Program-made: the position numbers and the translations under genes
The notes under the pieces: generated by a model
Databases searched by the model: none
The model's input: the letters and a program-made list of their open reading frames with translations, nothing else
What the model was told of the DNA's origin: nothing
Source of the DNA: a phage
NCBI GenBank assembly: GCA_019326865.1
Contig: GCA_019326865.1_4101.1
DNA length: 64,000 bases
Strand: one strand, 5' to 3'
Shown here: positions 19,061 through 47,130 of the stretch, piece after piece
Position numbering within the stretch: the first letter of the stretch is position 1
Layout of the letters: every line of letters starts with the position of its first letter

Positions 19061-19290
19061 TACTGACAGAACTAGAAATGTATCATAGATTTAATAAGTA
19101 CTATCATTTACTTAAGCCTATACAGAGGATTAAATGTCCATTTGAAGAGAAACAGGTATTAATTTATGAGCATAAGTTATTTGTATCATTAGGTACGAAT
19201 GAACAAGAGTATTATTTGAAGTTGTACTTAATTACTTTAATTGAATTGATTAATCACAAAACACAGAAAGCTAAGAAATCTAAAAAATGA
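19054..19290 (+). CDS. family A paralog, hypothetical
   Basis: famA LGTNEQEYYL. Confidence 0.6.
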   Translation: MLVLTELEMYHRFNKYYHLLKPIQRIKCPFEEKQVLIYEHKLFVSLGTNEQEYYLKLYLITLIELINHKTQKAKKSKK

Positions 19291-19625
19291 AAACTAATAT
19301 TCAACTCAAGGTATACATATCTTATGAATCTATATACATCAAATGCAGTCTATGTAAAGATGTAATGGATTATAAAGGTAAGCCATTCACAATTACTTAC
19401 AGTCTAACAGGAGGCTTTTATATATCTTTTGTTGATTACGAAAATAAAATATACAAGCACATTGATATTAAAGATTTAAGTACCTTGTCAGATGAGGAAT
19501 ACTTTCAAGAATCATTAGTATGGGATTTAGAGTTTCCTATGACATTAGTACACAAAATGATAGTACTAATGAAAGAAACTAAACCTGAGCCGAGTGGTTA
19601 TGAAGAATTCATTATTGAGTATTAA
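19287..19625 (+). CDS. family B paralog (acidic-FQxS motif), hypothetical
   Basis: famB SDEEYFQESLVWD; sits inside family A array. Confidence 0.6.
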   Translation: MKTNIQLKVYISYESIYIKCSLCKDVMDYKGKPFTITYSLTGGFYISFVDYENKIYKHIDIKDLSTLSDEEYFQESLVWDLEFPMTLVHKMIVLMKETKPEPSGYEEFIIEY

Positions 19626-19637
19626 GAGTACTGATAT

Positions 19638-19853
19638 ATGAAAAGATTATCATACAAAGATTACAGTAAACTTATCAGTACTTTACAACCAGAAATTAGA
19701 AGAATTAATTATCTTCCTATATCTAACGAAGAACGTGTAGTACTGAAAAATGAGTTAATATTAAAACGCACAGTAGGTACTAACTATCAAGATAATAGTG
19801 TTTGCGATTTAATTAGAGGGTTAATGATCACAATAAAGGCCAAGTGCTATTGA
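19638..19853 (+). CDS. family A paralog, hypothetical
   Basis: famA VGTNYQDNSV. Confidence 0.6.
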   Translation: MKRLSYKDYSKLISTLQPEIRRINYLPISNEERVVLKNELILKRTVGTNYQDNSVCDLIRGLMITIKAKCY

Positions 19854-19859
19854 CAGTAC

Positions 19860-19888
19860 TTGACGGAGCTTTTCATTACTGATATAGT
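19860..19888 (+). promoter_or_regulatory. sigma70-like promoter
   Basis: TTGACG-17nt-TATAGT upstream of 19918. Confidence 0.45.
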
Positions 19889-19917
19889 ATACTAACGTTA
19901 ATCATAGGGTAGAAATT

Positions 19918-20163
19918 ATGTTAAAATTTTTAAATTTCCTTATCGTCTTGTGTATTGTTCTTGGGATTGCACCGTTTGTACTGGTGTATATGGATTCAGA
20001 TGAAATGCAAAAGATGAATTGCACAAAGACGGGACAGAGTAGAGAAGAGACGATTCTTATGCCTGTTACTGTTATTGTTAATAATATGCCCATTACAAAC
20101 ATGGTCCCTACCCTAACGACAACGTACCAGTACTCTTGTACAGACGGGGAGAGGTGGAGATGA
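19918..20163 (+). CDS. hypothetical membrane protein (81 aa)
   Basis: ORF track; N-terminal hydrophobic helix FLNFLIVLCIVLGIAPFVLVY. Confidence 0.55.
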   Translation: MLKFLNFLIVLCIVLGIAPFVLVYMDSDEMQKMNCTKTGQSREETILMPVTVIVNNMPITNMVPTLTTTYQYSCTDGERWR

Positions 20164-20480
20164 AATTTAATATAGCAAAAACATCGAATGTATGTATATT
20201 TGGTTATGCAGAAGAGTTAGGTGATATTGACATTCTTTTGTACAAAAAGGATGGTGTTATGCATTTCAAGTACCAGGATGAAGAGGCAGACAATTATCTT
20301 TTGCCTAATTTAGTACAAATGCAGGAAGAGGAATTATTCCAGTACAGCTTAGTATATGACATTGATATTTGCACGATGCCAGTACTAATTAATATTCAAA
20401 AAGTGATGCTCGATGTGTTTGATAGGCTAATACAAGGCACACAAGGAAGAACCATATATGTCAATGTACAAGACAATTAA
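20136..20480 (+). CDS. family B paralog, hypothetical
   Basis: famB QEEELFQYSLVYD. Confidence 0.6.
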   Translation: MYRRGEVEMKFNIAKTSNVCIFGYAEELGDIDILLYKKDGVMHFKYQDEEADNYLLPNLVQMQEEELFQYSLVYDIDICTMPVLINIQKVMLDVFDRLIQGTQGRTIYVNVQDN

Positions 20481-21418: not shown

Positions 21419-21622
21419 GTGCAAAATAGTAATACGATAACATTAAATGCATTACAGGATTCATTATTAGATAGTATTAAGATGTATTACAATATACATT
21501 TGAGGGGTGGCATTGATGATTATAATTATTATTTGAGTTTAATTGTAATTGAGCACCTTTCAGTACAGGACAGGATTTTACATCCTACAAATCCTAGGTA
21601 TCCATCGATAGGTAAATTATGA
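21419..21622 (+). CDS. hypothetical protein (67 aa)
   Basis: ORF track; start is GTG per track. Confidence 0.4.
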   Translation: MQNSNTITLNALQDSLLDSIKMYYNIHLRGGIDDYNYYLSLIVIEHLSVQDRILHPTNPRYPSIGKL

Positions 21623-22176
21623 ATGAGATAGAGTTATTAGCACACAAGATAAGTACAATAATGCTTATCCTCAATAACAACCATCCTATATCGCAGATAG
21701 ATGGAATCCTGAGTCAGAGGACAGGTGGTAGTTTATATTTGTCCCTAAACGCAAATATCGCAAGGAAATACATTGACATTGGTGATGTTGATGCTGAAAT
21801 CGAATGTGATACAACTGGAATTGTTGATGTAGGTGCATTAATCAGTTCAAATCCTGTATCAGTATCCCCGTTGACCAAAGGTGTTAGTACAGGATTCGAA
21901 GGATATTTGTGGTATAATGCTAATGATAATTATTTTATATATCAGCATTCTAATACAAATTATGATGAAGATAAATTTGAGTTCATTGACCCTTATGATG
22001 AAGCTGGAGTATTTCAACAATCATTAATCACAAAACCACATCAAATGATGTATCTAATGTTATTCAGTACAATGAATTTGAATCCATTAATTAATGGTTT
22101 AAAGTTTTATATTCAATTGAATTTGGTTCATGTAGTTTATGATTTATTAATGCAAGGATATAGTTATGAAGTATAA
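21619..22176 (+). CDS. family B paralog, hypothetical
   Basis: famB DEAGVFQQSLITKP; ATGA-coupled. Confidence 0.6.
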   Translation: MNEIELLAHKISTIMLILNNNHPISQIDGILSQRTGGSLYLSLNANIARKYIDIGDVDAEIECDTTGIVDVGALISSNPVSVSPLTKGVSTGFEGYLWYNANDNYFIYQHSNTNYDEDKFEFIDPYDEAGVFQQSLITKPHQMMYLMLFSTMNLNPLINGLKFYIQLNLVHVVYDLLMQGYSYEV

Positions 22177-22468
22177 AATGATGTATACTCCAGATATGAT
22201 TTATGTTGAATTAGAAGACGATGACGACGGCTGGAATTTGATTTATTCAATTAGTTCAGGTTGGTACATGGCACATTTAAATGATAACAAAGTTACAGAT
22301 TATTTTGTAGATTTCAACACCTTATCCGATGAAGAATTGTTTCAACAACAATTAGTGATTGATACAGGTGGTTATGATGTGTTATTATTAAAAAAGATAC
22401 AGAAAGCTGTTATTGATTTTAAGCCCAATATGTTGCAAAGGAAATATTATGACATCGAAGTACAATAA
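22166..22468 (+). CDS. family B paralog, hypothetical
   Basis: famB SDEELFQQQLVID. Confidence 0.6.
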   Translation: MKYKMMYTPDMIYVELEDDDDGWNLIYSISSGWYMAHLNDNKVTDYFVDFNTLSDEELFQQQLVIDTGGYDVLLLKKIQKAVIDFKPNMLQRKYYDIEVQ

Positions 22469-22802
22469 TGTATTTGATATTAAGAAATTAAAAGAATGGG
22501 TTTATAGTATTGAAATTGAAGCAATTCCTTATCATAGATACAAACAATATGATTTATGTAATATAGATATTCGTGAGTTGTACGCATATTATCAGAGTGC
22601 ATTAGAGATGCATAAGATATTTTTGAGTTCAAATTACATGACACGTTGTAATGATGCTTTTAAAGAATTTAATAATTATAATTTAGTACAAAAATATGTA
22701 GTATCAAAGTACATGTACAATCAAGGAATTAAAGGTTGTATTGAATTCAATTCGGTCTTTGCTTTAGTTGAGATAATTTTATGCAGTACATGTCTGATTT
22801 AG
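22449..22802 (+). CDS. hypothetical protein (117 aa)
   Basis: track ORF 22413..22802; start moved to ATG 22449 (MTSKYNNV) to reduce overlap. Confidence 0.5.
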   Translation: MTSKYNNVFDIKKLKEWVYSIEIEAIPYHRYKQYDLCNIDIRELYAYYQSALEMHKIFLSSNYMTRCNDAFKEFNNYNLVQKYVVSKYMYNQGIKGCIEFNSVFALVEIILCSTCLI

Positions 22803-23278
22803 AGTTTAGTTTAGATGCTGCTTTTAAATTTGTACACAAGATAGAAACAATATATCGTACATTATGTGCAATACGATTAGTAACATCTGAACTTGATGTT
22901 GGTAAAAGGTATCAGGTATGGAATAACACATTTCTAGACAAAGAGCGTTGTTCAACTGGGTTTAATATTTTATCATTTAATCCAAGTAATTGTTACCCAG
23001 AGAAGCATGAGCGTTATCCGAATGATGACATGTGGTTTGAGTACAAAGAAGATGGTGATATGTCGTTCATTGAAGTTCCTGATGATTTTAATGCACAAGA
23101 TTTAACAGAAGAATGGTGGTTCCAGCAGAATTTAGTCCACGATGATATTGATTTATTTTTTTATGTAGTATTTAAAATGCTTTATCACAACAAGATAGTA
23201 CAAGATAGTGTATTTTTTTCATGTCTATATATTGATGATTTGTACAATGAAATTCAAATCAACATGCCTGTATCGTAA
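22781..23278 (+). CDS. family B paralog, hypothetical
   Basis: famB TEEWWFQQNLVHDD. Confidence 0.6.
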   Translation: MQYMSDLEFSLDAAFKFVHKIETIYRTLCAIRLVTSELDVGKRYQVWNNTFLDKERCSTGFNILSFNPSNCYPEKHERYPNDDMWFEYKEDGDMSFIEVPDDFNAQDLTEEWWFQQNLVHDDIDLFFYVVFKMLYHNKIVQDSVFFSCLYIDDLYNEIQINMPVS

Positions 23279-23303
23279 GATATGGGCTTTTTTTGTTTTG
23301 GTA

Positions 23304-23332
23304 TTGACATAGAAGTACAAAACTGTTATCAT
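23304..23332 (+). promoter_or_regulatory. sigma70-like promoter
   Basis: TTGACA-17nt-TATCAT; SD AAAGGAGG before ATG 23359. Confidence 0.5.
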
Positions 23333-23358: not shown

Positions 23359-23880
23359 ATGGCGAGTTTTATGGTTCCAAGTACATACGAAGATGCATCA
23401 AGTGCAGTGCATAAGGTTCATCATATTTTTAATTTAATTATTAATGCATCAAAAAATAAAATGTATGCACCTCTAGTGAAATTTAATAAAAATGAGGAAA
23501 TTTTTGTTAGTACAGAACAAACGATTTTTCCATATTTCAATAAAGATAGATTATGGTTCATGCATTCAGTTGCATTACAAAGATATAATATAACAAGATC
23601 CAACGAAAATCATAATCCAGGATATTTGCATATATCGTTATACCATCCCGATATTGGAGAGGATGTATATTTTCAGTACAGCACAGTACACTGCCATGAA
23701 GATATCTTTGCTGCTATGCTTATTGCTAAACTGAACACCGTTGATTTGGAGTACCACAAATACAATAATAAATCATTTAAGATCATAATCCCTGCATTCA
23801 TAGCTCTTTATGATTATGTGGTGCATAACAAAAAAGATGATACATATGCTTTCAATGAAGAGTATTTGGATTTTTTTTAA
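23359..23880 (+). CDS. family B paralog, hypothetical
   Basis: famB GEDVYFQYSTVHCHED. Confidence 0.6.
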   Translation: MASFMVPSTYEDASSAVHKVHHIFNLIINASKNKMYAPLVKFNKNEEIFVSTEQTIFPYFNKDRLWFMHSVALQRYNITRSNENHNPGYLHISLYHPDIGEDVYFQYSTVHCHEDIFAAMLIAKLNTVDLEYHKYNNKSFKIIIPAFIALYDYVVHNKKDDTYAFNEEYLDFF

Positions 23881-23889: not shown

Positions 23890-24435
23890 ATGAGCAGTAC
23901 AACAGTACAGAAAGCAATGACATTCAATGAAATTGGTGCATTTAAAGATAAGATTATTGATAGTATTGAATATTTGATTTGTTGTAACATCAATAAGATA
24001 GATGTATATAACAAGGTAAATGGTTCATGTCACACAATGTACATGACAAACAACAATGGAACTATTCCATTTATTTCGGATAGTACAATATGGTACGCAT
24101 GTGATACAACAAAATACACAGCAGGTTCGTATGTGTTAGGGACACATAAGGAATTAATTATTCCTGAGCATTGTATACAAGAAGAAGAATATTTTCAAAT
24201 GCAGTTAGTACACGCACCATTAGAGATGGTTGCTTTATATATGATACCTTATATCTCTAAATGTGTTCATGAGAATAAAGCTCCATGGAATCATGAATTT
24301 GGTTCGTTGAAGTTATTGTATAATGTTTTAGCACAATATTATGATTACAGACACGAGGGTACAATCAGCGATGTATGGGATTTTGAATCACTAAGGGTGA
24401 AAACATACACAGGTGAATTATATGTCCAGAATTAA
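23890..24435 (+). CDS. family B paralog, hypothetical
   Basis: famB QEEEYFQMQLVHAP; SD AAGGAGAA. Confidence 0.6.
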   Translation: MSSTTVQKAMTFNEIGAFKDKIIDSIEYLICCNINKIDVYNKVNGSCHTMYMTNNNGTIPFISDSTIWYACDTTKYTAGSYVLGTHKELIIPEHCIQEEEYFQMQLVHAPLEMVALYMIPYISKCVHENKAPWNHEFGSLKLLYNVLAQYYDYRHEGTISDVWDFESLRVKTYTGELYVQN

Positions 24436-25036
24436 AATGTGTGATTTGATGCAGTACAGTAAAATTGCAATTCCAGTACTTAATAAAGTTCTTGATGCAT
24501 TCATTGCAAAATACCCTGAGAATTCAGAATTACGTATTCCGTTTCGTGTACCAGACATAGATGATACATTCTATGTAAATGTCAGTACACGTGGTATTAC
24601 ATTGCAGCAGAAATACAGGGATACAGAATACTATGGAATAAAGTTGGATTCGGGGCAGGGTTCTAAATCATCCTATGATTTTTTTGTTCCTAATAATATA
24701 GAGTCATGGGAAACAAACATTTCAAAGAAAGATGAAAATGATGTTCCTATTAGTGGTGAATTAAGCAATAAAGTTTTTTATTATTACGAAACTGATAAAT
24801 TCCCTGAAGAGTTATATTACAATTCAGAAATGAGTGAAGATGTAGATGCATTCATGTTTCAATTATCTTTAGTACAGGATATAATTAATGTTCAAGAGTT
24901 AAGAGCAGAAATCAATTTAGCTAAAGAGTTGTCGGACATGTTGCCACCGTTTAGTATGATTTTTTGTGAAGGAGGTTATTTTACAAAAGAAGTGTTTGAA
25001 CATTTCGTAGATGTTGTAAAAGGGTTGGATATATAG
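24413..25036 (+). CDS. family B paralog, hypothetical
   Basis: famB DVDAFMFQLSLVQD. Confidence 0.6.
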   Translation: MNYMSRIKMCDLMQYSKIAIPVLNKVLDAFIAKYPENSELRIPFRVPDIDDTFYVNVSTRGITLQQKYRDTEYYGIKLDSGQGSKSSYDFFVPNNIESWETNISKKDENDVPISGELSNKVFYYYETDKFPEELYYNSEMSEDVDAFMFQLSLVQDIINVQELRAEINLAKELSDMLPPFSMIFCEGGYFTKEVFEHFVDVVKGLDI

Positions 25037-25037: not shown

Positions 25038-25268
25038 ATGCTTACTGATGATATTAAACAAAAATACCGTAAGTTTGATTGGTTCACCGACAGTTTCCAG
25101 CTTGAATTACTGCATTTGAATATAAGTGAGACATTATGTGCAGAAACACAAGATGAATTTGATGACAGAGTTCTTAACATAGTAATGCTTTCTTGCTTTA
25201 AACACTTTGGTTATTTTTCGAACAGGATTAAGGTACAAAATGCATCAACACAAGCATCATTCATATGA
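25038..25268 (+). CDS. hypothetical protein (76 aa)
   Basis: ORF track; no family motif. Confidence 0.45.
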   Translation: MLTDDIKQKYRKFDWFTDSFQLELLHLNISETLCAETQDEFDDRVLNIVMLSCFKHFGYFSNRIKVQNASTQASFI

Positions 25269-25755
25269 TTTTGCAATTAACATTATGAAGTTCATTCGAG
25301 CGTTGGAGGATGGGAAGCTTAGTCATAAGTACAGGAAAGAGGGTAACAATTGGTTCAGAAATGATTCCGAGTTCAGGAGTCATAACATCGTGTATAGCAA
25401 TCAGTACAGTGCTAATTACCTACAAGATGTAGTGATGTGTTTTGAATATGTATTGCAGTTCAGGGGTACAATCCAGAATGAATTAATGGATCACATGTAC
25501 ATCCGATACCTTCCAATGCATAAAGATGAAAATGCATTATTAGGTTCAATATACCAACGAGTAAGGGAAATTGAGTGCAGGGATATATTAGATACAGAAG
25601 AATCGTATTTCCAGCAATCTCTTATTACTGCACCTGATTCATTACAGGCACATAATTTGTTTAATACATTACGTCAGAACATCAGTACAGACATATTTTT
25701 GTCATTATTGGATTATGATACATTTGTCAAAGATTTAGAGGAAATAGGTTTATGA
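25240..25755 (+). CDS. family B paralog, hypothetical
   Basis: famB TEESYFQQSLITAPD; start moved from track 25207 to ATG 25240. Confidence 0.55.
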   Translation: MHQHKHHSYDFAINIMKFIRALEDGKLSHKYRKEGNNWFRNDSEFRSHNIVYSNQYSANYLQDVVMCFEYVLQFRGTIQNELMDHMYIRYLPMHKDENALLGSIYQRVREIECRDILDTEESYFQQSLITAPDSLQAHNLFNTLRQNISTDIFLSLLDYDTFVKDLEEIGL

Positions 25756-26117: not shown

Positions 26118-26666
26118 ATGAGTTTATTAGATACATTAGAAAAAGACCGAAGTGCAATTAAACGATTAAAAAAGCAAATTCAAAAGATTGTATACAACGT
26201 TGATAAGTTTGAGGTTCCTGGGAGAGTAGGTGATATTTCCCATACTGAGATCAAATCCCTTAAGTCAGATTTGTTGTTAAAAAATAAAAATGAGTTGATT
26301 TTAGTTTTGAGTTCAGATATGATGGGGGTAAGATATGGTTTTAATTCAGTATCAGTGCATCCTAAGAGTGAAGGGATATATCTATCACAGGGTTTCAATA
26401 GCAACGAGCAGAAGTGTTTTTACGATGCTGTACATGAACCTTTGAAGTTTACGAGAAGTGAAGCTCAAGCGTTATTAGAGCTATCAGACGAGAGTTTGTT
26501 TCAGTACAGTACAATGTACGACAATGACAAGCTTCGTTGTATGTACGCAGTGAAGCATTATGCACATGAGTTCTCTGGATTTGAATACCTTTTAGTTAGA
26601 ACCAATACAATGTATCTTGATATGTTAGAAGAATACATCGATAAAGTTGTTAATGAGTATCACTAA
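26118..26666 (+). CDS. family B paralog, hypothetical
   Basis: famB SDESLFQYSTMYDND. Confidence 0.6.
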   Translation: MSLLDTLEKDRSAIKRLKKQIQKIVYNVDKFEVPGRVGDISHTEIKSLKSDLLLKNKNELILVLSSDMMGVRYGFNSVSVHPKSEGIYLSQGFNSNEQKCFYDAVHEPLKFTRSEAQALLELSDESLFQYSTMYDNDKLRCMYAVKHYAHEFSGFEYLLVRTNTMYLDMLEEYIDKVVNEYH

Positions 26667-27300: not shown

Positions 27301-28029
27301 ATGAAATATAAAGAATTTTGTATAAAAACATGGATGTACACTGGTGAATTGCTTACGTGCTGTAATTTGTACAAGCGTGATGTAAACTTCACAAAGGACA
27401 AAGTTATCAAGTATGAAAATTCTCAATTTTATTTGATGGATTTTAGTACTGGGTTTCATGGTAAATCAACCGAGATGCTGGATTATACATTAATGGATGA
27501 GGCGGCACTATTTCAAGAATCATTAGTATTTGATAAGAAGTACATCTGTACATTAGAAGAGATGATTGAAATTCAGAATAAAATTAAATGTGTTCACAGG
27601 GAATGTATTGATAAATGGTGTAAAACTGGTGAAACTGATTTTAGTAATCATTTTAATTTAGGAGAAAGAGTGATGGAATTTGATTTTTTAATATCAGTGC
27701 ATACATTCAAGAATACACATCAGTACTTTTGTAATTTAAACAAAGGTGATTTAATGCACAGTGCGAATGAGTATATTCATTTTATGGATGGTAAATTCAC
27801 ATTCATTGATTACAGTTCATTACAATATCCACATCAAGATATGCCGGACTATACAATAATGAATGAGGCTGAACTATTTCAAGCTTCATTAGTATTTGAC
27901 AAGAAGTACATCTGTACATTTGAAGAAGTAATTACTATACAAAATGAAATGAAGGAGTATGCATCTTTGAATAAACCCAATGAAGGTATTAATCAAGAAT
28001 ACAAATTCAATATAGAGATTCCAAAATGA
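27301..28029 (+). CDS. family B paralog with internal tandem duplication
   Basis: two motif copies: DEAALFQESLVFDKKYICTLEEM and NEAELFQASLVFDKKYICTFEEV. Confidence 0.6.
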   Translation: MKYKEFCIKTWMYTGELLTCCNLYKRDVNFTKDKVIKYENSQFYLMDFSTGFHGKSTEMLDYTLMDEAALFQESLVFDKKYICTLEEMIEIQNKIKCVHRECIDKWCKTGETDFSNHFNLGERVMEFDFLISVHTFKNTHQYFCNLNKGDLMHSANEYIHFMDGKFTFIDYSSLQYPHQDMPDYTIMNEAELFQASLVFDKKYICTFEEVITIQNEMKEYASLNKPNEGINQEYKFNIEIPK

Positions 28030-28385
28030 CATATGATTATTCTATGTACTATTATAAGTTACCTAAAGGATGGGACTTGTGCTGTAATCTTATTAAGGGA
28101 GACTCGGAACATGAGTTGAATTTATATATGCACTACAAAGATTCTTGTTTTAAATTTATTCATGTATCACATGATGACTATGACTATGAATCTGAGAGTC
28201 TTATAGATTATACAGTACTGGACGATGGCGAACTATTTCAGGAAGCATTAGTGTTTGATAAGAATAAGTACTCCTGTACATTTGAAGAAATGGTTTCTTT
28301 GCAAACTGAAATGAAGAGATTTGAAAAAGAAAACGTATTTAATCCATCCCCATCAAGAACGAATAATTATTATTTCAATATATGA
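28026..28385 (+). CDS. family B paralog, hypothetical
   Basis: famB DDGELFQEALVFDKNKYSCTFEEM; ATGA-coupled; third copy of the unit in 27301..28029. Confidence 0.6.
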   Translation: MTYDYSMYYYKLPKGWDLCCNLIKGDSEHELNLYMHYKDSCFKFIHVSHDDYDYESESLIDYTVLDDGELFQEALVFDKNKYSCTFEEMVSLQTEMKRFEKENVFNPSPSRTNNYYFNI

Positions 28386-36766: not shown

Positions 36767-37163
36767 AATTATGCAACGCTGTCTTATTGACAAATACGGG
36801 ATATATGGATATCGTTTAAGTGCTCCTATTGACAAAAATAAAACAACCTATGTAAGTTATAATGCTGTACAAGGGTTTGATATATTCATTAGTACTAATT
36901 ATCAAATCAAACAAGCTAAAGATGTGTCTATAATGACCCCTGATGAGTTATTTCAGTACAGCTTAGTTCTTCCTACATGTATCGATTTACAACGTCTAGG
37001 AGCGATACAGAAGGTTTTACGCGAACATAAAGTACAACCCAATAAAGTCACGCACATTCCAGAAACAATCTTCAAAACTATAGAAGTAGAAACCCCTGAT
37101 TATATGTTAAGTGATGATGAATTCTACGAGAAGCACTTCCCTGGTAAAGTTTGGAGAGACTAA
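36750..37163 (+). CDS. family B paralog, hypothetical
   Basis: famB TPDELFQYSLVLPT. Confidence 0.55.
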   Translation: MLEMIKIMQRCLIDKYGIYGYRLSAPIDKNKTTYVSYNAVQGFDIFISTNYQIKQAKDVSIMTPDELFQYSLVLPTCIDLQRLGAIQKVLREHKVQPNKVTHIPETIFKTIEVETPDYMLSDDEFYEKHFPGKVWRD

Positions 37164-37645: not shown

Positions 37646-38171
37646 GAATGTAAAATGCATCACTGACATTTGTATAAAATTAATGAAAATTTTCATTAAC
37701 CCAAAATACAAGACTCGTTCTTTACGTCATAATATTGATGAGCATTGTACCATTAATATCCTAGGTAGTATTCTTGATGTAAAATATGATGGTAAACTGT
37801 TATTCGGTATAAGAGAAGAGAAAATGGATGATGCATTCTTTTCTTGTAAAGATAAATTTGAACCTTCTGATTATAAAGTAATTATTCGTGATGATAGCAT
37901 CTATATTAGTAGTGATTATTCAAATTACTTCGATAAAATATACACTGAAAACGTTGATTACCATTATGAAATGCTAGATTTACCAGTAACAGACATTGAT
38001 ATGGAGAGAATCAAATTTTCATTATCAGATAATGAGTACTTAGGTATACAAACATATTATTCACTACAAGGAAAGATTCCACCTGCTATGTATATAAGGA
38101 TTGAGATTGGTAATGTATTCAATGATAAGGTTATATCAATTGCTGATAAAATATTGAGGGTTGAATTATGA
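37629..38171 (+). CDS. hypothetical protein (180 aa)
   Basis: ORF track; no clear family motif. Confidence 0.5.
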   Translation: MYIENENVKCITDICIKLMKIFINPKYKTRSLRHNIDEHCTINILGSILDVKYDGKLLFGIREEKMDDAFFSCKDKFEPSDYKVIIRDDSIYISSDYSNYFDKIYTENVDYHYEMLDLPVTDIDMERIKFSLSDNEYLGIQTYYSLQGKIPPAMYIRIEIGNVFNDKVISIADKILRVEL

Positions 38172-38731
38172 ATGGCCATGATTACCAATTCCATAGACTA
38201 GAATTTAGACACTGTGTTGCATATGCAAAAACATTAATGTGCATCATTGACACTCTTTCATCCGAACAATTTCGTAAGGATAATGATTTATTGCTGAAAA
38301 AAGGTCGTATAACATCATCCGATATCGGTATTGAACTATTTGTTGAAATCAGTGTTGATACCGGAGACAGTACAAGGGCTGGTTGTATAGGTCATATTGG
38401 CACACATTGTTTCACATGGAATCCAAATACAAGTCAAGTTAGAATTGATTATAGAAATTCACGTTGGGTTGATCTTAGTACTGAATCAGATTTAGAATCA
38501 GTTATGTTCCAGCTAAGTTTAATTCACGATCCTAATGAACTTCTTTATATTATTACTTTCAGTTATCTGTTACAAAACTACGATAGTCCATCAGGGTTTT
38601 TCATAGAATCAGATATAGATGAAATTATGGAAGAGATTCCTAGTTTAAAGAATATTCTGGAAGAAAAAGATTTCTATAAGGACTTCAGAGATTTATACGA
38701 CATGCACTTGGAGTTATTTAAGAATGGATAA
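38168..38731 (+). CDS. family B paralog, hypothetical
   Basis: famB LESVMFQLSLIHDPNE; ATGA-coupled. Confidence 0.55.
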   Translation: MNGHDYQFHRLEFRHCVAYAKTLMCIIDTLSSEQFRKDNDLLLKKGRITSSDIGIELFVEISVDTGDSTRAGCIGHIGTHCFTWNPNTSQVRIDYRNSRWVDLSTESDLESVMFQLSLIHDPNELLYIITFSYLLQNYDSPSGFFIESDIDEIMEEIPSLKNILEEKDFYKDFRDLYDMHLELFKNG

Positions 38732-39242
38732 AGATGATATTCTAATTAGACTAGTTCAGAGTTTGATAAAGTTCGCAAATAATGATATCAATACATACAA
38801 AGTAGGTGATATTGAATTCAAATCATTTGGTATGTACGGTGATGACGAAACATATTATGCTTCAATGAAATTTCAAGAATTTCACGAGATGTTAATATCG
38901 TTATCATACGAAGATGTTGACCCAAGATGGAGTTCCAGTATTTCACTATCGAGAATGGTAATTCGTAGTAAGCATCGTTACATTTCGTCAAAGAATACTC
39001 CTAACTTGATTAATATTGTGTTGAATGAAAATACAAACCCCCTATCTAAATATGATATCGTACCTTTAACCGATGAAGCAATTTTTCAATTGAGTACCAT
39101 TTGTGATGAAGATGTGATATCATGTATGAAAATTTATGAGAAAGTTGGGGGTGATATTCCCATGAACTATTACCTAACTATAGATGAAACGTATCTCCAA
39201 GATGATGTTCTGGCGTACATTGACAGTGTTTTACCAAAATAA
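38724..39242 (+). CDS. family B paralog, hypothetical
   Basis: famB TDEAIFQLSTICDED; followed by terminator. Confidence 0.55.
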   Translation: MDKDDILIRLVQSLIKFANNDINTYKVGDIEFKSFGMYGDDETYYASMKFQEFHEMLISLSYEDVDPRWSSSISLSRMVIRSKHRYISSKNTPNLINIVLNENTNPLSKYDIVPLTDEAIFQLSTICDEDVISCMKIYEKVGGDIPMNYYLTIDETYLQDDVLAYIDSVLPK

Positions 39243-39266
39243 AGACCCGTTATGGGTCTTTTTGTG
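39243..39266 (+). terminator. rho-independent terminator
   Basis: GACCC-GTTAT-GGGTC followed by TTTTTG. Confidence 0.6.
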
Positions 39267-39274
39267 TTTATGGC

Positions 39275-39303
39275 TTTACAAGAGCATTCAGGTGTGTTAT
39301 ACT
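39275..39303 (+). promoter_or_regulatory. sigma70-like promoter
   Basis: TTTACA-17nt-TATACT; SD GGAGGAAT before ATG 39319. Confidence 0.5.
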
Positions 39304-39318: not shown

Positions 39319-39894
39319 TTGGAGGAATCTATGAGTACTGAATTAATTAAAGAAGTTACCTTACTTCTGAAGCATTGTTTTAAGTTCATTCCTGATACTG
39401 GTTCACGCCAGTACATTAAAGTTAATGAGAAATATAACATCAATATCCTTGTATCTGAAACTGCGAGCAGCTATGCTAACATTGAGTTGGATTCTGAAGA
39501 AAAATATACAGTATTACAAATCATAGCAGATGTACAACGTAAACAAGATTATCGTTCTTCATTTGACAACGATTATCTGTGTGTTTGCTCAAACTTCAGT
39601 GAGAATAAAATTGTGTATAAGAATTTATACACACATGAAGTGATTGATACATATAATTATAAAATTTCATCTGATGAATACAATGTGCTAATGTTCAACG
39701 CAAACCTTTTGTATGATGCCAGTACTGTACGCTGTTTAGAGTTAGCATATAAAATTCCAAAGATCATGGAAAGAAAAGATTTGATTCACTTTAAAACTAT
39801 TTTAAAATACAGTACAAAAGAATTAGAAGATTTAGTACAGGCTCTTAAGAATTTCATTAATGAACATGTACCTGTTAAATTAGAGGACTTATAA
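39319..39894 (+). CDS. hypothetical protein (191 aa), possible degenerate family B
   Basis: ORF track; degenerate SDEYNVLMFNANLLYD. Confidence 0.5.
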   Translation: MEESMSTELIKEVTLLLKHCFKFIPDTGSRQYIKVNEKYNINILVSETASSYANIELDSEEKYTVLQIIADVQRKQDYRSSFDNDYLCVCSNFSENKIVYKNLYTHEVIDTYNYKISSDEYNVLMFNANLLYDASTVRCLELAYKIPKIMERKDLIHFKTILKYSTKELEDLVQALKNFINEHVPVKLEDL

Positions 39895-40478
39895 TGCAAG
39901 TTGAACACATTCAAATTATGAAATTGATGCATGACATTGCGGAACTATCTGATAAGTACGATATTACTGTTCATGAGCCTATTGGAAATTATCGACTTAA
40001 AATTGAAAACAAATCACCACATCGTTTTGGTTCTGTAACTCTTGAATATTATAAAGTTTACGGTTATGAAACGGCAAAAAAAGGTTTCTGGGATACTATG
40101 GCAATGTATATCCGTACATCAAGACGTAGAGAACAAATCGGTTCAATCACGCCACATATGATATTTGTCAATGCTGTACACAGTGATATTAATCGAATTG
40201 TTGAATCTAATTTTGGTGACGTTGAGAACGATACATATTTAGAAATTCCACCAGAACTAGATCAATGTGAAGACATTCGTGAAGCATACATTTTCCAGAG
40301 ATCATTACTTGACAACTTCAATGAGTTTGAGTACTTGATGCTTTGCTATGAAACTGCAAAAGCTATTAAGACTGGTGAATTGGTAATGTATAATAATTTC
40401 ATTAACTGCAAATCCGATACACTTAAAGAGTTACACACTGCCATAAAAAACATCAAGGATACATATGAACGCTTATAG
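39894..40478 (+). CDS. family B paralog, hypothetical
   Basis: famB IREAYIFQRSLLDN. Confidence 0.55.
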   Translation: MQVEHIQIMKLMHDIAELSDKYDITVHEPIGNYRLKIENKSPHRFGSVTLEYYKVYGYETAKKGFWDTMAMYIRTSRRREQIGSITPHMIFVNAVHSDINRIVESNFGDVENDTYLEIPPELDQCEDIREAYIFQRSLLDNFNEFEYLMLCYETAKAIKTGELVMYNNFINCKSDTLKELHTAIKNIKDTYERL

Positions 40479-41043
40479 TTACATGACAGAACGTCATCAG
40501 ATATTATATGATATCAGTACTAAAATGTTATCAATTGTTAGTAGTGCGAAAGAAATTGAAAAACAATACCTCATCCGTGATGTAGCAATTTCATCTAAAT
40601 GTTGGTCCAATGAATATTACGATCATGGTATTCTTACTATTTCTGGGGCTAGAAATATTTGTATTGTAAAAAATAAGAAAAAATGCAATGAAGAGTGTGA
40701 GATTAGAACCGATATACAAATTAAGGATGATGGAAGTTTTTCACACCACCCATTCCATATTAGTACTGTTGGTGTTTTATATAATATTAAAGTACTATTC
40801 GGTGATGAAGAGTATGTGTTAAAAGCTATCAATCCAGAATCAAGTACAGTTGAAGAAGAACTGTTCCAGATGAGCACGGTTATACCTGAAGAGGTTCTTA
40901 GTACTGTTATTTTTTGTAGTTTAATTTATCATGAATACAAAAAGAACCAGTTCGATTTCCACATGTTAGGAACGTACATCTTCAATAATTTGAGCGTAGA
41001 TCGTTTAAAAGCATTAAATTCAGCGATGGATAAGGTTCTATAA
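40465..41043 (+). CDS. family B paralog, hypothetical
   Basis: famB VEEELFQMSTVIPEE. Confidence 0.6.
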   Translation: MNAYSYMTERHQILYDISTKMLSIVSSAKEIEKQYLIRDVAISSKCWSNEYYDHGILTISGARNICIVKNKKKCNEECEIRTDIQIKDDGSFSHHPFHISTVGVLYNIKVLFGDEEYVLKAINPESSTVEEELFQMSTVIPEEVLSTVIFCSLIYHEYKKNQFDFHMLGTYIFNNLSVDRLKALNSAMDKVL

Positions 41044-41471: not shown

Positions 41472-41977
41472 GTTTATTAAATGCACGAGAATTAGTTGAG
41501 ATGTATGAGATCTTATCTTCATATAAAAATTCCCCAAAAGATGTAATTCTCAACAAAAAGTTCCATGTCAATGTTGATCATATGAAAAATATAGATATGA
41601 TTTCTTTAGTGGAAAGTAGTAAATCGGGTCTTGAGCGTGATATCATGCGTTTGATTTATATTACCAAACCATCATATACTAATGATAGTTCAATTAGTAA
41701 TGAGACATTTTTGTACACTCCTTATACTGATTGTACTTTAGTTTCAGTGTCTAATCAGAAACAAGATACTATCCAATTCATCAATACCAGTACTGATAAC
41801 ATTGAAGAAAATGAATTCCAAAACAATACATTAAGTTCATGTAGTAGTGTTATAACCTTTATGTCATATCTGTGGTCAATAAAATCAAATGCAATTGTAT
41901 ATAGTTCTAATTACACACAAGATAGTATTGTTGAATCATATAAAGCTCTGAAGGAATACTATGAAAATAACAAATGA
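41468..41977 (+). CDS. family B paralog, hypothetical
   Basis: famB IEENEFQNNTLSS; ATGA-coupled. Confidence 0.5.
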   Translation: MSLLNARELVEMYEILSSYKNSPKDVILNKKFHVNVDHMKNIDMISLVESSKSGLERDIMRLIYITKPSYTNDSSISNETFLYTPYTDCTLVSVSNQKQDTIQFINTSTDNIEENEFQNNTLSSCSSVITFMSYLWSIKSNAIVYSSNYTQDSIVESYKALKEYYENNK

Positions 41978-42542
41978 TTTTTTTAAATGTTTAGTACACC
42001 CTATGCTGAGTGTTATGAAAAAATTACAGAATCTACCGGAAGACAACGATTACAAGTTTAATCGTTTTGATTCAGATGTATTTTGTATTGAAATTGAAAT
42101 GAATAATAATCGTAATTTGCATTTAAAATTCAAAGAATCGTCAAGTCCGTATTACAACTTTGATATGAATTTTAAAATAGATACTGACATTGAAGAAAAC
42201 GTAATATCAAATCATACTAGCAAAAATGGTTTTAAGCATAGAACTACTATGTACAATAATAAAAATAGTATTATATCTAAATGGTTTCACCAATTCACCA
42301 AAATTGGTGAAATTGAATATAGTGATTTTGGTGAAGAGCAATACTTTCAGTTGAGTACAATTCATGAACTTCCACCATATGATTATGTTAAAACATGGTT
42401 TGATATTCATAATATAATTGATGATGCAATCAAACTTCCATTTGGGGTATCAATATCATATACTGCTCCTAAAACATTTGTTTTTACGGAAGATATGATT
42501 ATGAAAAAGATATGGGCAATTATCCCACTTATGATGGATTAA
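41961..42542 (+). CDS. family B paralog, hypothetical
   Basis: famB GEEQYFQLSTIHE. Confidence 0.6.
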   Translation: MKITNDFFKCLVHPMLSVMKKLQNLPEDNDYKFNRFDSDVFCIEIEMNNNRNLHLKFKESSSPYYNFDMNFKIDTDIEENVISNHTSKNGFKHRTTMYNNKNSIISKWFHQFTKIGEIEYSDFGEEQYFQLSTIHELPPYDYVKTWFDIHNIIDDAIKLPFGVSISYTAPKTFVFTEDMIMKKIWAIIPLMMD

Positions 42543-42546: not shown

Positions 42547-42575
42547 ATACCAGGGGTTGACTCTGGTATTTTTGT
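42547..42575 (+). terminator. rho-independent terminator (weak)
   Basis: ATACCAG-loop-CTGGTAT followed by TTTTT. Confidence 0.45.
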
Positions 42576-42603: not shown

Positions 42604-43155
42604 ATGAACTACAATCATGATCTTTTTACATTATGTGCATCAAAATGTGTTGATGGTTGGGCAGATAAAATCAATACCATAATTCATCGATATCTCGTCT
42701 TTAGTTCCCGTGCACGAAGTGAGGGGGCTATGGATTTCAAATATACACTATCTATTGATGGTGTAACTATCCATGCAGACGAAGAACGTCTGAGCATTAA
42801 TTTGTATGATTCCTGTGTATTTGCTATTCACCAAAAGATGGGGAAAGGATGGGGTTGTAATAACATTAACTCCAAAGCTATCTTTTGGGTTGGTCACCAT
42901 CAGACAGTACTTGATCCTTCAATTAAATCTAATCTTTTATCCGATAATATGGTTTATGATTTATTGTACTCCGAAGAACAACATTTTCAATTAAGTACAT
43001 TGCATGATCTGGCACAGTACGAGGATTGTTACAAAACATTAGAACTATGCCATTCCCTTGAACTCAAAGATAAATTGATACAAGTTTACCCTTCATTCTT
43101 TCATGAAGAAGTACAATGCACACTAGAACATATTTTATATGGGTACGACAAATGA
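42604..43155 (+). CDS. family B paralog, hypothetical
   Basis: famB SEEQHFQLSTLHD; SD AAGGAGAA. Confidence 0.6.
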   Translation: MNYNHDLFTLCASKCVDGWADKINTIIHRYLVFSSRARSEGAMDFKYTLSIDGVTIHADEERLSINLYDSCVFAIHQKMGKGWGCNNINSKAIFWVGHHQTVLDPSIKSNLLSDNMVYDLLYSEEQHFQLSTLHDLAQYEDCYKTLELCHSLELKDKLIQVYPSFFHEEVQCTLEHILYGYDK

Positions 43156-44337: not shown

Positions 44338-44338
44338 T

Positions 44339-44752
44339 ATGAAACTGTACCATGCGAGTACTGTAAAAATTGATAACTTTTATATCCCGTATGGTGGTCT
44401 ACATATGGGAGGCAAACACAGTGCTTTGGAAGCTGCATTACGCAAGCTGAGAAGCCCACTGAACGTCGTAGACGCATGTACAGTATACTTGCATACCTTA
44501 GAAGTTGATGTTGATAACGTGCTTCTGTGTGAAGATTTAGGCAGTGATGATGAGTGGCGTTCACTTATTGAGAATTGCACTGTTCAAGGATATGATGCTG
44601 TTCAGTACAAAAATGATTACGAGCCAGACAATGTTCCTAGTTATATGATTTGGGATGCATCTAAAGTTCGTATAGTTGAAGTTGATGCTATGCATATGGA
44701 TGATGCTGAAATGATTATCGAAGATTTTCTTGATGAATATGAAGGTGTATAA
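44339..44752 (+). CDS. hypothetical protein (137 aa), unrelated to families A/B
   Basis: ORF track; no family motif; looks slightly GC-richer than neighbours by eye. Confidence 0.55.
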   Translation: MKLYHASTVKIDNFYIPYGGLHMGGKHSALEAALRKLRSPLNVVDACTVYLHTLEVDVDNVLLCEDLGSDDEWRSLIENCTVQGYDAVQYKNDYEPDNVPSYMIWDASKVRIVEVDAMHMDDAEMIIEDFLDEYEGV

Positions 44753-45288
44753 TGTCTGACCCGATGGTAGCACTGGCACGTACTAAATTACTATTAAAGA
44801 TTGGTGAGATATTCACAGATCTTCTGTGCAATAAAATTGATATTACCGATCTAGATATTAAGCAACCGTGGGAAGTGACTATGTTCTCGGCGTTCCACCG
44901 ATTGTCATATAAAGGTGAAAGTGTTCTTGATTTTAACCCCAAAGCAAAATTCATAGATTATGCCGCGTTGTACCGAGCGTTGCACAAAAATAGTTATTCA
45001 GGTTGTATAACCAATAACTTTGAACGAATTCAAGTTCAAACAGCATCACATGAGTTCAATGATTTACTCTATCCAGAATTTAATCTAACTGAAGAATTAC
45101 TATTTCAGTACTCGTTAATTCTTACAAATCTCGAAACGCTAGAGTACTACAAAGAGTTAGTAGATATTTTTATGAATACACGACTTTCAAAAGATATTGT
45201 GATATTCTGGTATACAGAGCATATTACAGAGGAATTGCTTAATGAATTTCTTCTAAATATGACAGCTATAAAGGAGAAGTTATGTTAG
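44752..45288 (+). CDS. family B paralog, hypothetical
   Basis: famB TEELLFQYSLILTN. Confidence 0.6.
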   Translation: MSDPMVALARTKLLLKIGEIFTDLLCNKIDITDLDIKQPWEVTMFSAFHRLSYKGESVLDFNPKAKFIDYAALYRALHKNSYSGCITNNFERIQVQTASHEFNDLLYPEFNLTEELLFQYSLILTNLETLEYYKELVDIFMNTRLSKDIVIFWYTEHITEELLNEFLLNMTAIKEKLC

Positions 45289-45755
45289 ATATTTTAGGAA
45301 ACATCGATACTGCAAATTATTTTATCCAAGACGCACTATTTAATACACTACAAAAAGGTTTAGAAGTTCGTTACAACGTATATCAAGGTGATGGATATTT
45401 TGTTGATATTCTAGAAACACGTAAAAATACATTTAATGTTAACATTACGACGTTTGGAAGACAGAACATTGCACGAATTTTAGTAAGTAAAGATGAAATA
45501 GTACTGAGATACAGTGCTAAGTTTATGTTGACGTACAAGAAAAAAACAGACATGTTCAGTACTAATTTATTTGATGAACCATTTGACCTTGTAGATATTG
45601 AAGCTACTTTCTTTACTCAAAGTACTATGGTAAAATACACTGATGTTCAATTTTCATCAGACGTTATGTCTGAAACATTACAAATGATCAAGGTATTATT
45701 TTATGCATTTGAGCAATTCAGAGAAGAAAGAAACAAGGTTAACAACCACAGATGA
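45282..45755 (+). CDS. hypothetical protein (157 aa), possible degenerate family B
   Basis: ORF track; degenerate IEATFFTQSTMVKY. Confidence 0.5.
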   Translation: MLDILGNIDTANYFIQDALFNTLQKGLEVRYNVYQGDGYFVDILETRKNTFNVNITTFGRQNIARILVSKDEIVLRYSAKFMLTYKKKTDMFSTNLFDEPFDLVDIEATFFTQSTMVKYTDVQFSSDVMSETLQMIKVLFYAFEQFREERNKVNNHR

Positions 45756-46116
45756 ACTAATAGAGGCGATCACTAAGGAGTCAAAATACCACAAAGGGAT
45801 TCGTCTATATTTTATAGATCTTGGTTCAATGGACGGCATATACATTTATGGTTCACAATCTTTATCTTATGATGTAATGCCAAAAAAATATGTAAAAATC
45901 TTTTTAGGGTCAAATAAGAAAACTTTCTTGACAATTAATGATAAAAACGTTATTATGAATTCTTTGGGTCATGATAAAGTGAAAATTGATCTAAACACGC
46001 TGGATGATATTGATTTTTTTCAATACGAATGTTTAGGTGTTGACTTACATGGAATCAGTAGTGATATGATAAAATCATTAATCAAATATTTCGAAGGCGT
46101 TCATAAATGTATCTAA
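45703..46116 (+). CDS. family B paralog, hypothetical
   Basis: famB DDIDFFQYECLGVD; 53-nt overlap with upstream ORF, start uncertain. Confidence 0.45.
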   Translation: MHLSNSEKKETRLTTTDELIEAITKESKYHKGIRLYFIDLGSMDGIYIYGSQSLSYDVMPKKYVKIFLGSNKKTFLTINDKNVIMNSLGHDKVKIDLNTLDDIDFFQYECLGVDLHGISSDMIKSLIKYFEGVHKCI

Positions 46117-46613
46117 CTAAATCGATGAAAAATTCATTTGATAAAATCAAGAGTTGTCTTGATGGAGAGAATATTACAAGTGTTACACAATCTGCTGACC
46201 AAATTCAATGCAGTTCAAGTGATTGTACTGTTATTTTGGGTTTACATAGTCTGCGTTTGTCAATAGTAAATAATATTGACAACACTGCTATTGTAATCAC
46301 ACCGTGCAATATTCAAAATGAGAATGGTGTATATCTTCATCACATGGGAACCGCATTTTATATTTTCAATACAAACAATACACTCGAAACAATCGTTAAG
46401 GAATATAATACACTTAACATTGATCCTGGTGAGTTATTTCAGATGAGTACGTTGTATTCATGTGATTTTACTGATACCTCACGTATTTTACCATTTTTCT
46501 TGGAAATTTTAAAGAAAATGGATAATTTAAATCGTCAATACAATAAAAAAATGGTTCCAGAAGCTATATTAAATATTACTGATGCTATGGAAAAATATAA
46601 AGCAGTGCCTTAA
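46107..46613 (+). CDS. family B paralog, hypothetical
   Basis: famB PGELFQMSTLYSCD. Confidence 0.55.
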   Translation: MYLTKSMKNSFDKIKSCLDGENITSVTQSADQIQCSSSDCTVILGLHSLRLSIVNNIDNTAIVITPCNIQNENGVYLHHMGTAFYIFNTNNTLETIVKEYNTLNIDPGELFQMSTLYSCDFTDTSRILPFFLEILKKMDNLNRQYNKKMVPEAILNITDAMEKYKAVP

Positions 46614-46656
46614 TAAAAAACGCACATGGAGTGCATATGAAGATCAAGGATAGATC

Positions 46657-47130
46657 ATGGAGATTAAAACTGTTGAAAATGGGAAAATTGATGACATTTT
46701 AGACTTGGACGCATTCAAAGTTCATGATATAATGTTTAATGTGAAGGACATTATTCAATGTCTGTTTTTATGCAGCAAGACTATGCATGATTTTTTTCAC
46801 AACCCGAATACTAATGTTTTTATACTTACAATCAGTACTGAAAACTCGTTTATCATGGGTATGCCCATGAGTACAAATGAACAGTATATTGATTGTGTTA
46901 TTCGCAATAATGATTGTATTACCCCACAATCTGAAGTTCGCAAAAAGAAAAACACTTACACAATCAAAGATGATAAAATCATGATGTGTTGCAGTAAAGG
47001 ATTTATATTGGACAATTTCATCGTCAAAGATAGTTATCATGACTTTAAAATTTCCGAAAATCAATCCAATGTAGTTCTTTATGCTAGTGATATCGAAAGT
47101 TTAACAGTCAAAGATCCTAGTTTGGAGTAA
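46657..47130 (+). CDS. hypothetical protein (157 aa)
   Basis: ORF track; no family motif. Confidence 0.5.
   Translation: MEIKTVENGKIDDILDLDAFKVHDIMFNVKDIIQCLFLCSKTMHDFFHNPNTNVFILTISTENSFIMGMPMSTNEQYIDCVIRNNDCITPQSEVRKKKNTYTIKDDKIMMCCSKGFILDNFIVKDSYHDFKISENQSNVVLYASDIESLTVKDPSLE

Follow-up and report, generated by a model that had tools for sequence, protein, structure and literature searches.

A tandem family of FQxS-motif paralogues beside the terminal repeat of an Asteriusvirus-group jumbo phage

Adjoining the terminal repeat of a jumbo phage genome is a tandem array of 38 open reading frames (ORFs) encoding 39 copies of one small domain, marked by an acidic–aromatic FQxS motif (consensus [LMI][TS]EEx[YL]FQxS[LT][VIL][YH][DN]). 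The array occupies positions 19287–46613 of the 64,000-nucleotide stretch analysed here (the window; contig GCA_019326865.1_4101.1 of NCBI GenBank assembly GCA_019326865.1), or about 27 kb of a phage genome of roughly 350 kb, and its members are by profile search true paralogues that form a large, previously undescribed family. By megablast, the window falls in the Asteriusvirus group of jumbo Escherichia coli myophages (PBECO4, 121Q, phAPEC6 and G17), where UE-S1 matches best (97% identity over 8 kb) and the rest of the genus is 92–93% identical; over the array, in DNA, phAPEC6 is ~93% identical. The G+C content of the window is 30–38%, and essentially all genes are on the + strand.

Between 19287 and 46613, a regular-expression scan found 34 copies of exact FQxS with acidic residues in front of it, spread over 33 + strand ORFs; four further + strand ORFs outside this interval carry FQxS. 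A hidden Markov model (HMM) of the motif region, extending from 25 residues upstream to 45 residues downstream of the motif, added five members that had not been seeds (starting at 22166, 22781, 23890, 28026 and 28879) as well as an outlier at 57699. Paralogy was tested non-circularly with jackhmmer, using single members as seeds to search the full set of + strand ORFs together with shuffled versions, five for every ORF: 27–34 ORFs were recovered per seed and 35 overall, with 0 of 805 shuffled decoys matched. A broader HMM that includes database homologues gave 38 matches in the window, all on the + strand. The large one-strand array and the shared motif, both proposed in an earlier sequence-only reading of this DNA, are therefore real, and the motif is significantly shared between members; the 45–50 paralogues counted there by eye come down to the 38 ORFs listed here, with lengths in amino acids (aa; pI, isoelectric point; pLDDT, predicted local distance difference test; pTM, predicted template modelling score).

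Member 1: 19287..19625 (+), 112 aa, short subfamily, motif SDEEYFQESLVW; motif HMM E=1.1e-16, jackhmmer match.
Member 2: 20136..20480 (+), 114 aa, QEEELFQYSLVY; motif HMM E=1.6e-14, jackhmmer match.
Member 3: 21619..22176 (+), 185 aa, YDEAGVFQQSLIT; motif HMM E=7.7e-16, jackhmmer match.
Member 4: 22166..22468 (+), 100 aa, SDEELFQQQLVI, Ser replaced by Gln; non-seed, HMM E=5.7e-5, 3.5e-12 after iteration.
Member 5: 22781..23278 (+), 165 aa, TEEWWFQQNLVH; non-seed, HMM E=3e-4, 7.6e-15 in the iterated profile.
Member 6: 23359..23880 (+), 173 aa, GEDVYFQYSTVH; first gene past the terminator at 23266 and promoter at 23304, HMM E=3.6e-11.
Member 7: 23890..24435 (+), 181 aa, QEEEYFQMQLVH; non-seed, HMM E=1.8e-5, 4.4e-14 in the iterated profile.
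Member 8: 24413..25036 (+), 207 aa, DVDAFMFQLSLVQ; weakest in-array member, HMM E=3.5e-9, broad HMM 8e-4, hhalign probability 52%.
Member 9: 25207..25755 (+), 182 aa, TEESYFQQSLIT; motif HMM E=1.9e-12.
Member 10: 26118..26666 (+), 182 aa, SDESLFQYSTMY; motif HMM E=8.3e-17.
Member 11: 27301..28029 (+), 242 aa, tandem domains MDEAALFQESLVF and MNEAELFQASLVF; two HMM domains, E=2.1e-32.
Member 12: 28026..28385 (+), 119 aa, DDGELFQEALVF; non-seed, motif HMM E=4.3e-8.
Member 13: 28395..28877 (+), 160 aa, SEEYYFQQSTVY; opens a five-copy burst, HMM E=1.4e-21, 57% identity to the member at 29789.
Member 14: 28879..29349 (+), 156 aa, SEEVYFQHNTIY; non-seed, motif HMM E=1.3e-12.
Member 15: 29346..29789 (+), 147 aa, TEEYYFQQSLIF; motif HMM E=5.6e-17.
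Member 16: 29789..30277 (+), 162 aa, SEEYYFQNSTIY; net charge −26, motif HMM E=9.8e-19.
Member 17: 30255..30701 (+), 148 aa, NEEYYFQNSTVY; motif HMM E=2.1e-19.
Member 18: 30679..31017 (+), 112 aa, DHESFIFQESLVW; motif HMM E=1.2e-10.
Member 19: 31322..31771 (+), 149 aa, TEEGYFQGSTLY; motif HMM E=2.4e-14.
Member 20: 31768..32304 (+), 178 aa, FEEQCFQLSCTD; motif HMM E=3.4e-10, broader HMM match.
Member 21: 32656..33219 (+), 187 aa, TEENIFQNSVLH; motif HMM E=5.7e-14.
Member 22: 33818..34180 (+), 120 aa, QEDELFQESLVW; HMM E=3.2e-17, AlphaFold pLDDT 81, pTM 0.74.
Member 23: 34104..34547 (+), 147 aa, GEEEMFQYSTVF; motif HMM E=1.9e-15.
Member 24: 34526..34867 (+), 113 aa, LDEGELFQESLVL; motif HMM E=2.4e-13.
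Member 25: 34857..35411 (+), 184 aa, NQEYYFQLSLLF; motif HMM E=2.3e-14.
Member 26: 35471..35947 (+), 158 aa, TEEEFFQYSTVY; first gene past the 12/12 consensus promoter at 35408, HMM E=1.4e-18.
Member 27: 35944..36447 (+), 167 aa, long subfamily, SEEMYFQESLIH; HMM E=7.2e-19, AlphaFold core pLDDT 75–87.
Member 28: 36404..36766 (+), 120 aa, SEEELFQESTIS; motif HMM E=1.1e-16.
Member 29: 36750..37163 (+), 137 aa, TPDELFQYSLVL; motif HMM E=1.8e-13.
Member 30: 37151..37645 (+), 164 aa, SEESYFQNSLIY; pI 9.1, one of two basic members, HMM E=1.3e-16.
Member 31: 38168..38731 (+), 187 aa, DLESVMFQLSLIH; best match Klebsiella-phage ORF K22283, HMM E=9.6e-15.
Member 32: 38724..39242 (+), 172 aa, TDEAIFQLSTIC; followed by the terminator at 39241–39261, HMM E=8.3e-15.
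Member 33: 39894..40478 (+), 194 aa, IREAYIFQRSLLD; motif HMM E=3.5e-14, broader HMM match.
Member 34: 40465..41043 (+), 192 aa, VEEELFQMSTVI; motif HMM E=2.3e-15.
Member 35: 41961..42542 (+), 193 aa, GEEQYFQLSTIH; followed by the terminator at 42547–42569, HMM E=9.7e-12.
Member 36: 42604..43155 (+), 183 aa, SEEQHFQLSTLH; motif HMM E=8.5e-10.
Member 37: 44752..45288 (+), 178 aa, TEELLFQYSLIL; motif HMM E=2.8e-9.
Member 38, last of the array: 46107..46613 (+), 168 aa, DPGELFQMSTLY; motif HMM E=2.3e-12.
Weak outlying member: 57699..58277 (+), 192 aa, PEHFQISTLYD; HMM E=1.5e-4, hhalign probability 47%.
Weak outlying member: 58274..58963 (+), 229 aa; broad HMM E=1.6e-4, hhalign probability 53%.

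The two divergent outliers are adjacent ORFs 11 kb downstream of the array and adjoin an RNA ligase gene (59225–60367). By HMM and hhalign, 25 of the 63 + strand ORFs of 19287–47130 are non-members, so that the motif is carried by fewer than the 'nearly every ORF' first supposed; five of the 25 belong to a separate family of ~70-aa proteins. The idea that the 25 are degenerate family copies was rejected, with 25752–26108 and 41468–41977 at best borderline. The array had been drawn to 47130, but its last member stops at 46613 and ORF 46657–47130 is a non-member. The close packing described earlier is confirmed, as 17 of the 62 gene junctions in the interval are stop–start overlaps of the ATGA or TAATG type and 28 are other overlaps; placement of the motif towards the C terminus also stands, at a measured distance of 39–74 residues in place of the usual 40–60.

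Conservation across the 174 aligned domains, measured as information content, is highest at [TS]-E-E-x-[YL]-F-Q-x-S-[LT]-[VIL]-[YH]-[DN], where F and Q reach 100% and S reaches 93% in a family of about 15% overall identity. Secondary conservation peaks are formed by alternating strand aromatics and by an F-Y-L-D strand after helix 2, and insertions cluster in hairpin loops. Among the homologues retrieved from databases, F-Q is kept in 135 of 138 and Ser at Q+2 in 124 of 135, with Q+1 variable; in several members that remain conserved, the Ser is replaced by Q, N or A. Iterated profiles extend the homology over ~90–100 residues in every member, including the β-sheet part, and reveal an extra N-terminal helix common to the longer members. 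The AlphaFold2 model of the 120-aa member 33818–34180, for which the 39 window domains served as alignment (pLDDT 81, pTM 0.74), comprises five antiparallel strands, a helix (residues 64–73), a long helix (residues 82–98) and a final strand, and helix 64–73, the best-conserved helix of this ~95-aa domain, is the motif itself (block pLDDT ~96). The model of the 167-aa member 35944–36447 has the same core (pLDDT 75–87) with terminal helices and a disordered insert, giving a common core topology for the two members modelled. Owing to the ~90–100-residue homology, the predicted helix and the conservation profile, the FQxS motif is, on these models, the core helix of a single globular α+β domain and not a linear docking peptide, and the earlier picture of unrelated N-terminal regions attached to one docking module does not hold.

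Codons at the invariant residues are mixed (Phe, TTT 26 and TTC 14; Gln, CAG 21 and CAA 19; Ser, AGY 21 and TCN 13), and since both serine codon families are used, it is the protein that is under selection, not a DNA or RNA element; motif conservation is at the protein level. The regular spacing of the motif on one strand could be explained by a recombination site, RNA signal, promoter or other nucleotide-level element that is translated by chance, but this has next to nothing in its favour given the ~95-aa homology, the lack of an Rfam match and the mixed synonymous codons at every conserved residue, the last of which refutes a nucleotide-level repeat.

The invariant positions are polar (Q, S and E-E) and the following [YH]D is conserved, as might be expected if the proteins were small enzymes or binders of ligands or nucleotides, with E-E, Q, S and [YH]-D forming a common site and paralogues differing in substrate. 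We consider this improbable: the ~95-aa domain shows no resemblance to a catalytic fold, Pfam family or PDB sequence, and the Ser substitutions noted above occur in members that are still conserved.

The members are small (100–242 aa), soluble and acidic, with a median pI of 4.75 and net charge of −10 (lowest −26), compared with pI 5.8 and net charge −2 for other ORFs. None has a membrane-type segment (19-residue Kyte–Doolittle maximum 1.5). The hydrophobic helix reported to follow the motif is thus a helix, but an amphipathic core helix and not one of membrane type; membrane or secreted proteins are ruled out, and we infer that the members stay in the cytoplasm.

Inner-body proteins of phiKZ-like phages are paralogous, and the FQxS proteins could likewise be packaged internal-head, inner-body or ejection proteins, with the motif acting as a maturation-protease cleavage or capsid-targeting signal. 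Prohead proteases of the T4 gp21 type, to which we take the enzyme of this phage to belong, cleave after Glu, which speaks against such processing, as does the motif being a folded helix with Ser at Q+2 rather than Q+1. The sister phage phAPEC6 has an inner body (PMC7247149), and the motif superficially resembles ENLYFQ↓S (tobacco etch virus (TEV)/3C, ExxYxQ↓S); however, none of the phAPEC6 orthologues (gp404c–gp466c) is among the 62 virion proteins detected in that phage by mass spectrometry (PMC7247149), and the genes lie in an early-type region far from the head genes. Packaging is largely refuted by the absence of the orthologues from the virion proteome, indirect evidence in that it comes from a sister phage, and we regard it as most improbable. 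A TEV/3C-type cleavage site (E-x-x-Y-x-Q↓S/G) was rejected, the Ser not being directly after Gln and the segment being a helix with pLDDT ~96.

Each of the 38 members has a reciprocal orthologue in phAPEC6, in collinear order, with a median identity of 91% and a ratio of nonsynonymous to synonymous substitution rates (dN/dS) of 0.22 at the median and 0.70 at most; dN/dS for genes downstream of the array is 0.175. These values show purifying and not positive selection on the orthologues, so that positive diversifying selection was rejected and the suggestion of a 'diversifying' repertoire finds no support at the genus scale. The family nevertheless evolves faster than neighbouring genes: median identity to vB_Ec-M-J is 75% for the family, 93% for terminal-repeat genes and 86% for downstream genes, and four of the 38 members lack an orthologue there. 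Copy number is 38, 42 and 41 in three Asteriusvirus genomes (this one, phAPEC6 and vB_Ec-M-J, respectively), and a Klebsiella jumbo phage has at least 28 members on a 40 kb stretch. For about half of the members, the best-matching protein is encoded by the Klebsiella phage and not by their own genome, with order kept (35944/K19677, 38168/K22283, 40465/K23423, 41961/K26182, 44752/K28963 and 46107/K30417); the array therefore predates the split between Escherichia and Klebsiella phages. Positions 28395–30701 hold a local five-copy burst, and phAPEC6 annotates several smaller genes across the interval corresponding to the two-domain ORF 27301–28029, so that a gene fusion or split has taken place within the genus. 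Taken together, the comparisons describe an old, maintained array with slow turnover by duplication, loss and fusion.

A gene accordion of duplicates without current function would also give copy numbers varying from 38 to 42, with local bursts and fusions. That the array is such evolutionary debris is nonetheless very improbable, because none of the 38 ORFs is disrupted, dN/dS is 0.22, gene order has been retained across genera and the motif is kept in 135 of 138 homologues.

Database searches returned no well-characterised family, in agreement with the statement of the sequence-only reading that the motif matched nothing known. Pfam matched 0 of 37 members at E ≤ 0.01; weak Pfam matches all had E ≥ 0.004 and were below family cut-offs, and Pfam searches with long homologues and with non-member ORFs of the array gave nothing useful. 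A sequence-profile search of the PDB with the family found nothing below E 0.15, and the PADLOC-DB defence profiles matched one member at E=0.009 and none of the other 36. In PHROGs, members match 28 clusters (E down to 1e-130), each labelled 'unknown function'; PHROGs 12674, 9317, 13866, 15629, 34017, 34600 and the 22 others contain window proteins, but the family is split over them and its unity and common motif are not recorded. Among 1.84 billion representative proteins, searched exhaustively with the family profile, only 127 clusters matched at E ≤ 0.001, all of 65–224 aa, and profile searches of a 5.8-billion-protein database returned the same phages and assemblies only, with no Pfam annotation and no domain fusions.

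The 45 phage records that carry the family are all of jumbo Escherichia, Klebsiella or Salmonella phages. Named relatives include Salmonella phages Munch and SE_PL and Klebsiella phages RaK2, K64-1 and Muenster; further relatives are ~350 kb contigs in bacterial assemblies. Foldseek against predicted viral structures returned only proteins of SP27, 121Q, UB and RaK2. The family is thus restricted to the RaK2-like jumbo phage clade. It is not described in the genome papers of CBB, fEgEco12, Sharanji and RaK2, in the phAPEC6 virion-structure and PA5oct omics papers or in a jumbo-phage overview; the RaK2 genome paper states that ~10% of gene products are paralogues, with no more on the subject.

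In vB_Ec-M-J, a direct terminal repeat spans positions 1–21525, the ~70-aa family begins at 21.6 kb and the FQxS family lies at ~27 to 56 kb on the same strand. Window positions 1–13300 correspond to the inner part of this ~21 kb repeat, and the array begins ~6 kb inside the repeat boundary. Intergenic gaps are rare in the array, and several hold an intrinsic terminator, a σ70-like promoter or both:

19860..19888 (+): σ70-like promoter TTGACG-17-TATAGT with extended −10, in an intergenic gap.
23266..23332 (+): intrinsic terminator 23266–23287, then promoter TTGACA-17-TATCAT at 23304–23332.
35408..35437 (+): perfect 12/12 consensus promoter TTGACA-18-TATAAT with TG.
39241..39303 (+): terminator 39241–39261, then promoter TTTACA-17-TATACT at 39275–39303.
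42547..42569 (+): intrinsic terminator between two members, overlapping a TTGACT promoter-like site.
47242..47262 (+): terminator-like hairpin directly downstream of the array.

Beyond the array, phAPEC6 has genes of a typical early or middle kind, for Dam methylase, RNA ligase 1, polynucleotide kinase, phosphatases, DNA ligase and a ClpP-like protease. The related phage PA5oct expresses its terminal-repeat genes early and depends for transcription on the RNA polymerase of the host (PMC7318152). From the position, promoters, downstream genes, absence from virions and PA5oct timing, we infer that the members are early, non-structural, cytoplasmic proteins.

On this basis we tentatively favour, as possible though short of probable, that the array is an old, maintained early multigene family of cytoplasmic proteins that bind host proteins in host takeover or anti-defence. 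Host RNA polymerase would transcribe the array early from σ70-type promoters, as several operons positioned just inside the 21 kb terminal repeat with its immediate-early promoter cassettes. Each paralogue would be a stoichiometric binder or inhibitor of a different protein of the host, or of a competing element, and the set of different binders would make up a repertoire for host takeover or anti-defence. The scaffold would be held together by the conserved helix and the aromatic strand residues, whereas the specificity of each copy would come from the indel-rich β-hairpin loops and variable surfaces.

Several observations weigh against this proposal. No member has a recognisable functional domain in the Pfam, PADLOC and PDB profile searches; acidity is common among phage early proteins and hence weak evidence; and early timing is drawn from position and consensus promoters alone. 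The promoter and terminator scans as a whole were not enriched over shuffles, so that it is only the location of the sites, in the gaps, that is suggestive. At positions with a purely structural role it is unusual for a Gln to be invariant and a Ser nearly so, a hint of a common activity or partner and not of 38 targets.

A common partner is what would be expected of an adaptor library, in which all paralogues would dock on one hub through the FQxS helix face and each would deliver a target of its own; candidate hubs are the phage ClpP, an AAA+ protease of the host, RNA polymerase and the replisome. Invariant F and Q and a 93% conserved S in a family of ~15% identity, with the rest of the domain variable, fit such a library, as does a ClpP homologue (phAPEC6 gp353c) ~25 kb downstream of the array. 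But the motif is predicted to be integral to the fold, its most confident helix being flanked by conserved hydrophobic residues and not forming a free peptide, and the link to ClpP is one of proximity alone, the same gene being annotated elsewhere as a head maturation protease. We judge an adaptor library, an idea already raised in the sequence-only reading, unlikely, though it is the chief rival to the proposal favoured here. More doubtful is its specific form, in which the E-E/F-Q/S face would dock a protease or RNA polymerase and ~40 adaptors would deliver host defence or housekeeping proteins; the nearby ClpP-like gene as hub is speculative. This gene (phAPEC6 263744–264439, gp353c; vB_Ec-M-J 81671–82366) lies in the early/middle region, is called ClpP in one record and 'head maturation protease' in another, and is distinct from the T4-type prohead protease gp227c.

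Window positions 1–13300, inside the terminal repeat, carry a promoter cassette (AAAAAGTACTTGCA or TTGACA, 17 nucleotides, TATAATGTTTTACAT) in 9–12 copies per overlapping repeat family. The cassette consists of a σ70-consensus promoter followed by a hairpin in the 5′ untranslated region, often of the form GGGGAA..TTCCCC, and occurs about once per small gene; such cassettes probably mark the immediate-early class. A hairpin-plus-promoter element (GGGATTGACTCCGGTCAGTCCC, then TTGCTATTATATA) is present in four copies (2834–2969, 6562–6697, 9571–9706 and 11855–11914), three of which are followed by ~100 nucleotides of conserved non-coding sequence that is Rfam negative, and the four elements are candidate small RNA genes. 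Non-coding RNAs have been reported in the terminal repeat of PA5oct. Rfam and tRNA scans of the window gave no matches.

Starting directly past the terminal-repeat boundary and partly interleaved with the FQxS family is the second, unrelated ~70-aa family of ~30 tandem paralogues (63–96 aa; window 13419–20909 and 32282–32669), with no Pfam match and a median identity to vB_Ec-M-J of 76%; its five copies inside the FQxS interval have pI 5.6–9.9. A third small family comprises five tandem paralogues of ~90–100 aa (window 53673–55082), also without a Pfam match. Two non-members embedded in the array, 37629–38171 and 39319–39894, have 97–98% identity to phAPEC6, far above their neighbours, and no known domain; they may be conserved partners or regulators.

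Across a whole jumbo-phage clade, several phages of which are under development for therapy, the family accounts for about 7% of gene number and about 8% of genome length, and it is invisible in annotation, with all members called 'hypothetical protein' and spread over 28 PHROGs. Forty anonymous genes can now be recognised as one testable unit, a family whose domain is defined and motif invariant, whose order is conserved and whose members are under purifying selection. If the array is a host-interaction repertoire, it would be among the largest known in a phage, a natural supply of novel inhibitors that act on bacterial proteins and a bacterial-virus parallel to the multigene families of African swine fever virus (ASFV), poxviruses and herpesviruses. 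Adaptors are known from poxviruses in the ankyrin/F-box and BTB families, and were the adaptor library true, the array would be a bacterial-virus counterpart of these and a new principle of broad-spectrum anti-defence.

Likeness of the predicted two-layer sheet-plus-helices fold to the RNA polymerase β/RPB2 lobe, to viral immune-evasin platforms resembling major histocompatibility complex class I and to polo boxes consists of generic-topology scores at 3–18% identity with no common motif, and cannot support homology or function. The inner-body and ejection proteins of phiKZ-like phages and the internal proteins of T4 are, like the FQxS family, paralogous small acidic proteins of giant phages, but they are packaged and processed by protease, whereas FQxS members were not found in virions and are encoded in an early-type region. 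By analogy in working logic only, the array resembles the terminal multigene families of large eukaryotic DNA viruses, namely ASFV MGF110/360/505, the poxvirus host-range families and cytomegalovirus US22/RL11, several of which are immune-evasion or host-range factors. Like the array, these families run to dozens of divergent paralogues set in tandem on one strand, close to an end of the genome, are non-structural, vary in copy number between strains and change faster than core genes while members are kept by selection. The array shows the near-terminus tandem arrangement, copy-number variation and turnover (four of 38 members without a vB_Ec-M-J orthologue, one fusion and one burst), but has no sequence or fold relationship to these families, has a bacterial host and, judged from promoter-like sites and genome position, would be expressed early. 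Among jumbo phages, a comparably large set of paralogues is known from Bacillus phage G, in which zinc-ribbon proteins have undergone a lineage-specific expansion to about 35 (Iyer et al. 2021, PMC7824862) and the function is likewise guessed; the FQxS family differs in having no zinc ribbon or Cys pattern, in belonging to another clade and in being present in several genera rather than one phage. Lineage-specific paralogue expansion in a giant virus is a known kind of system, and the protein family, its size and its clade-wide conservation are new.

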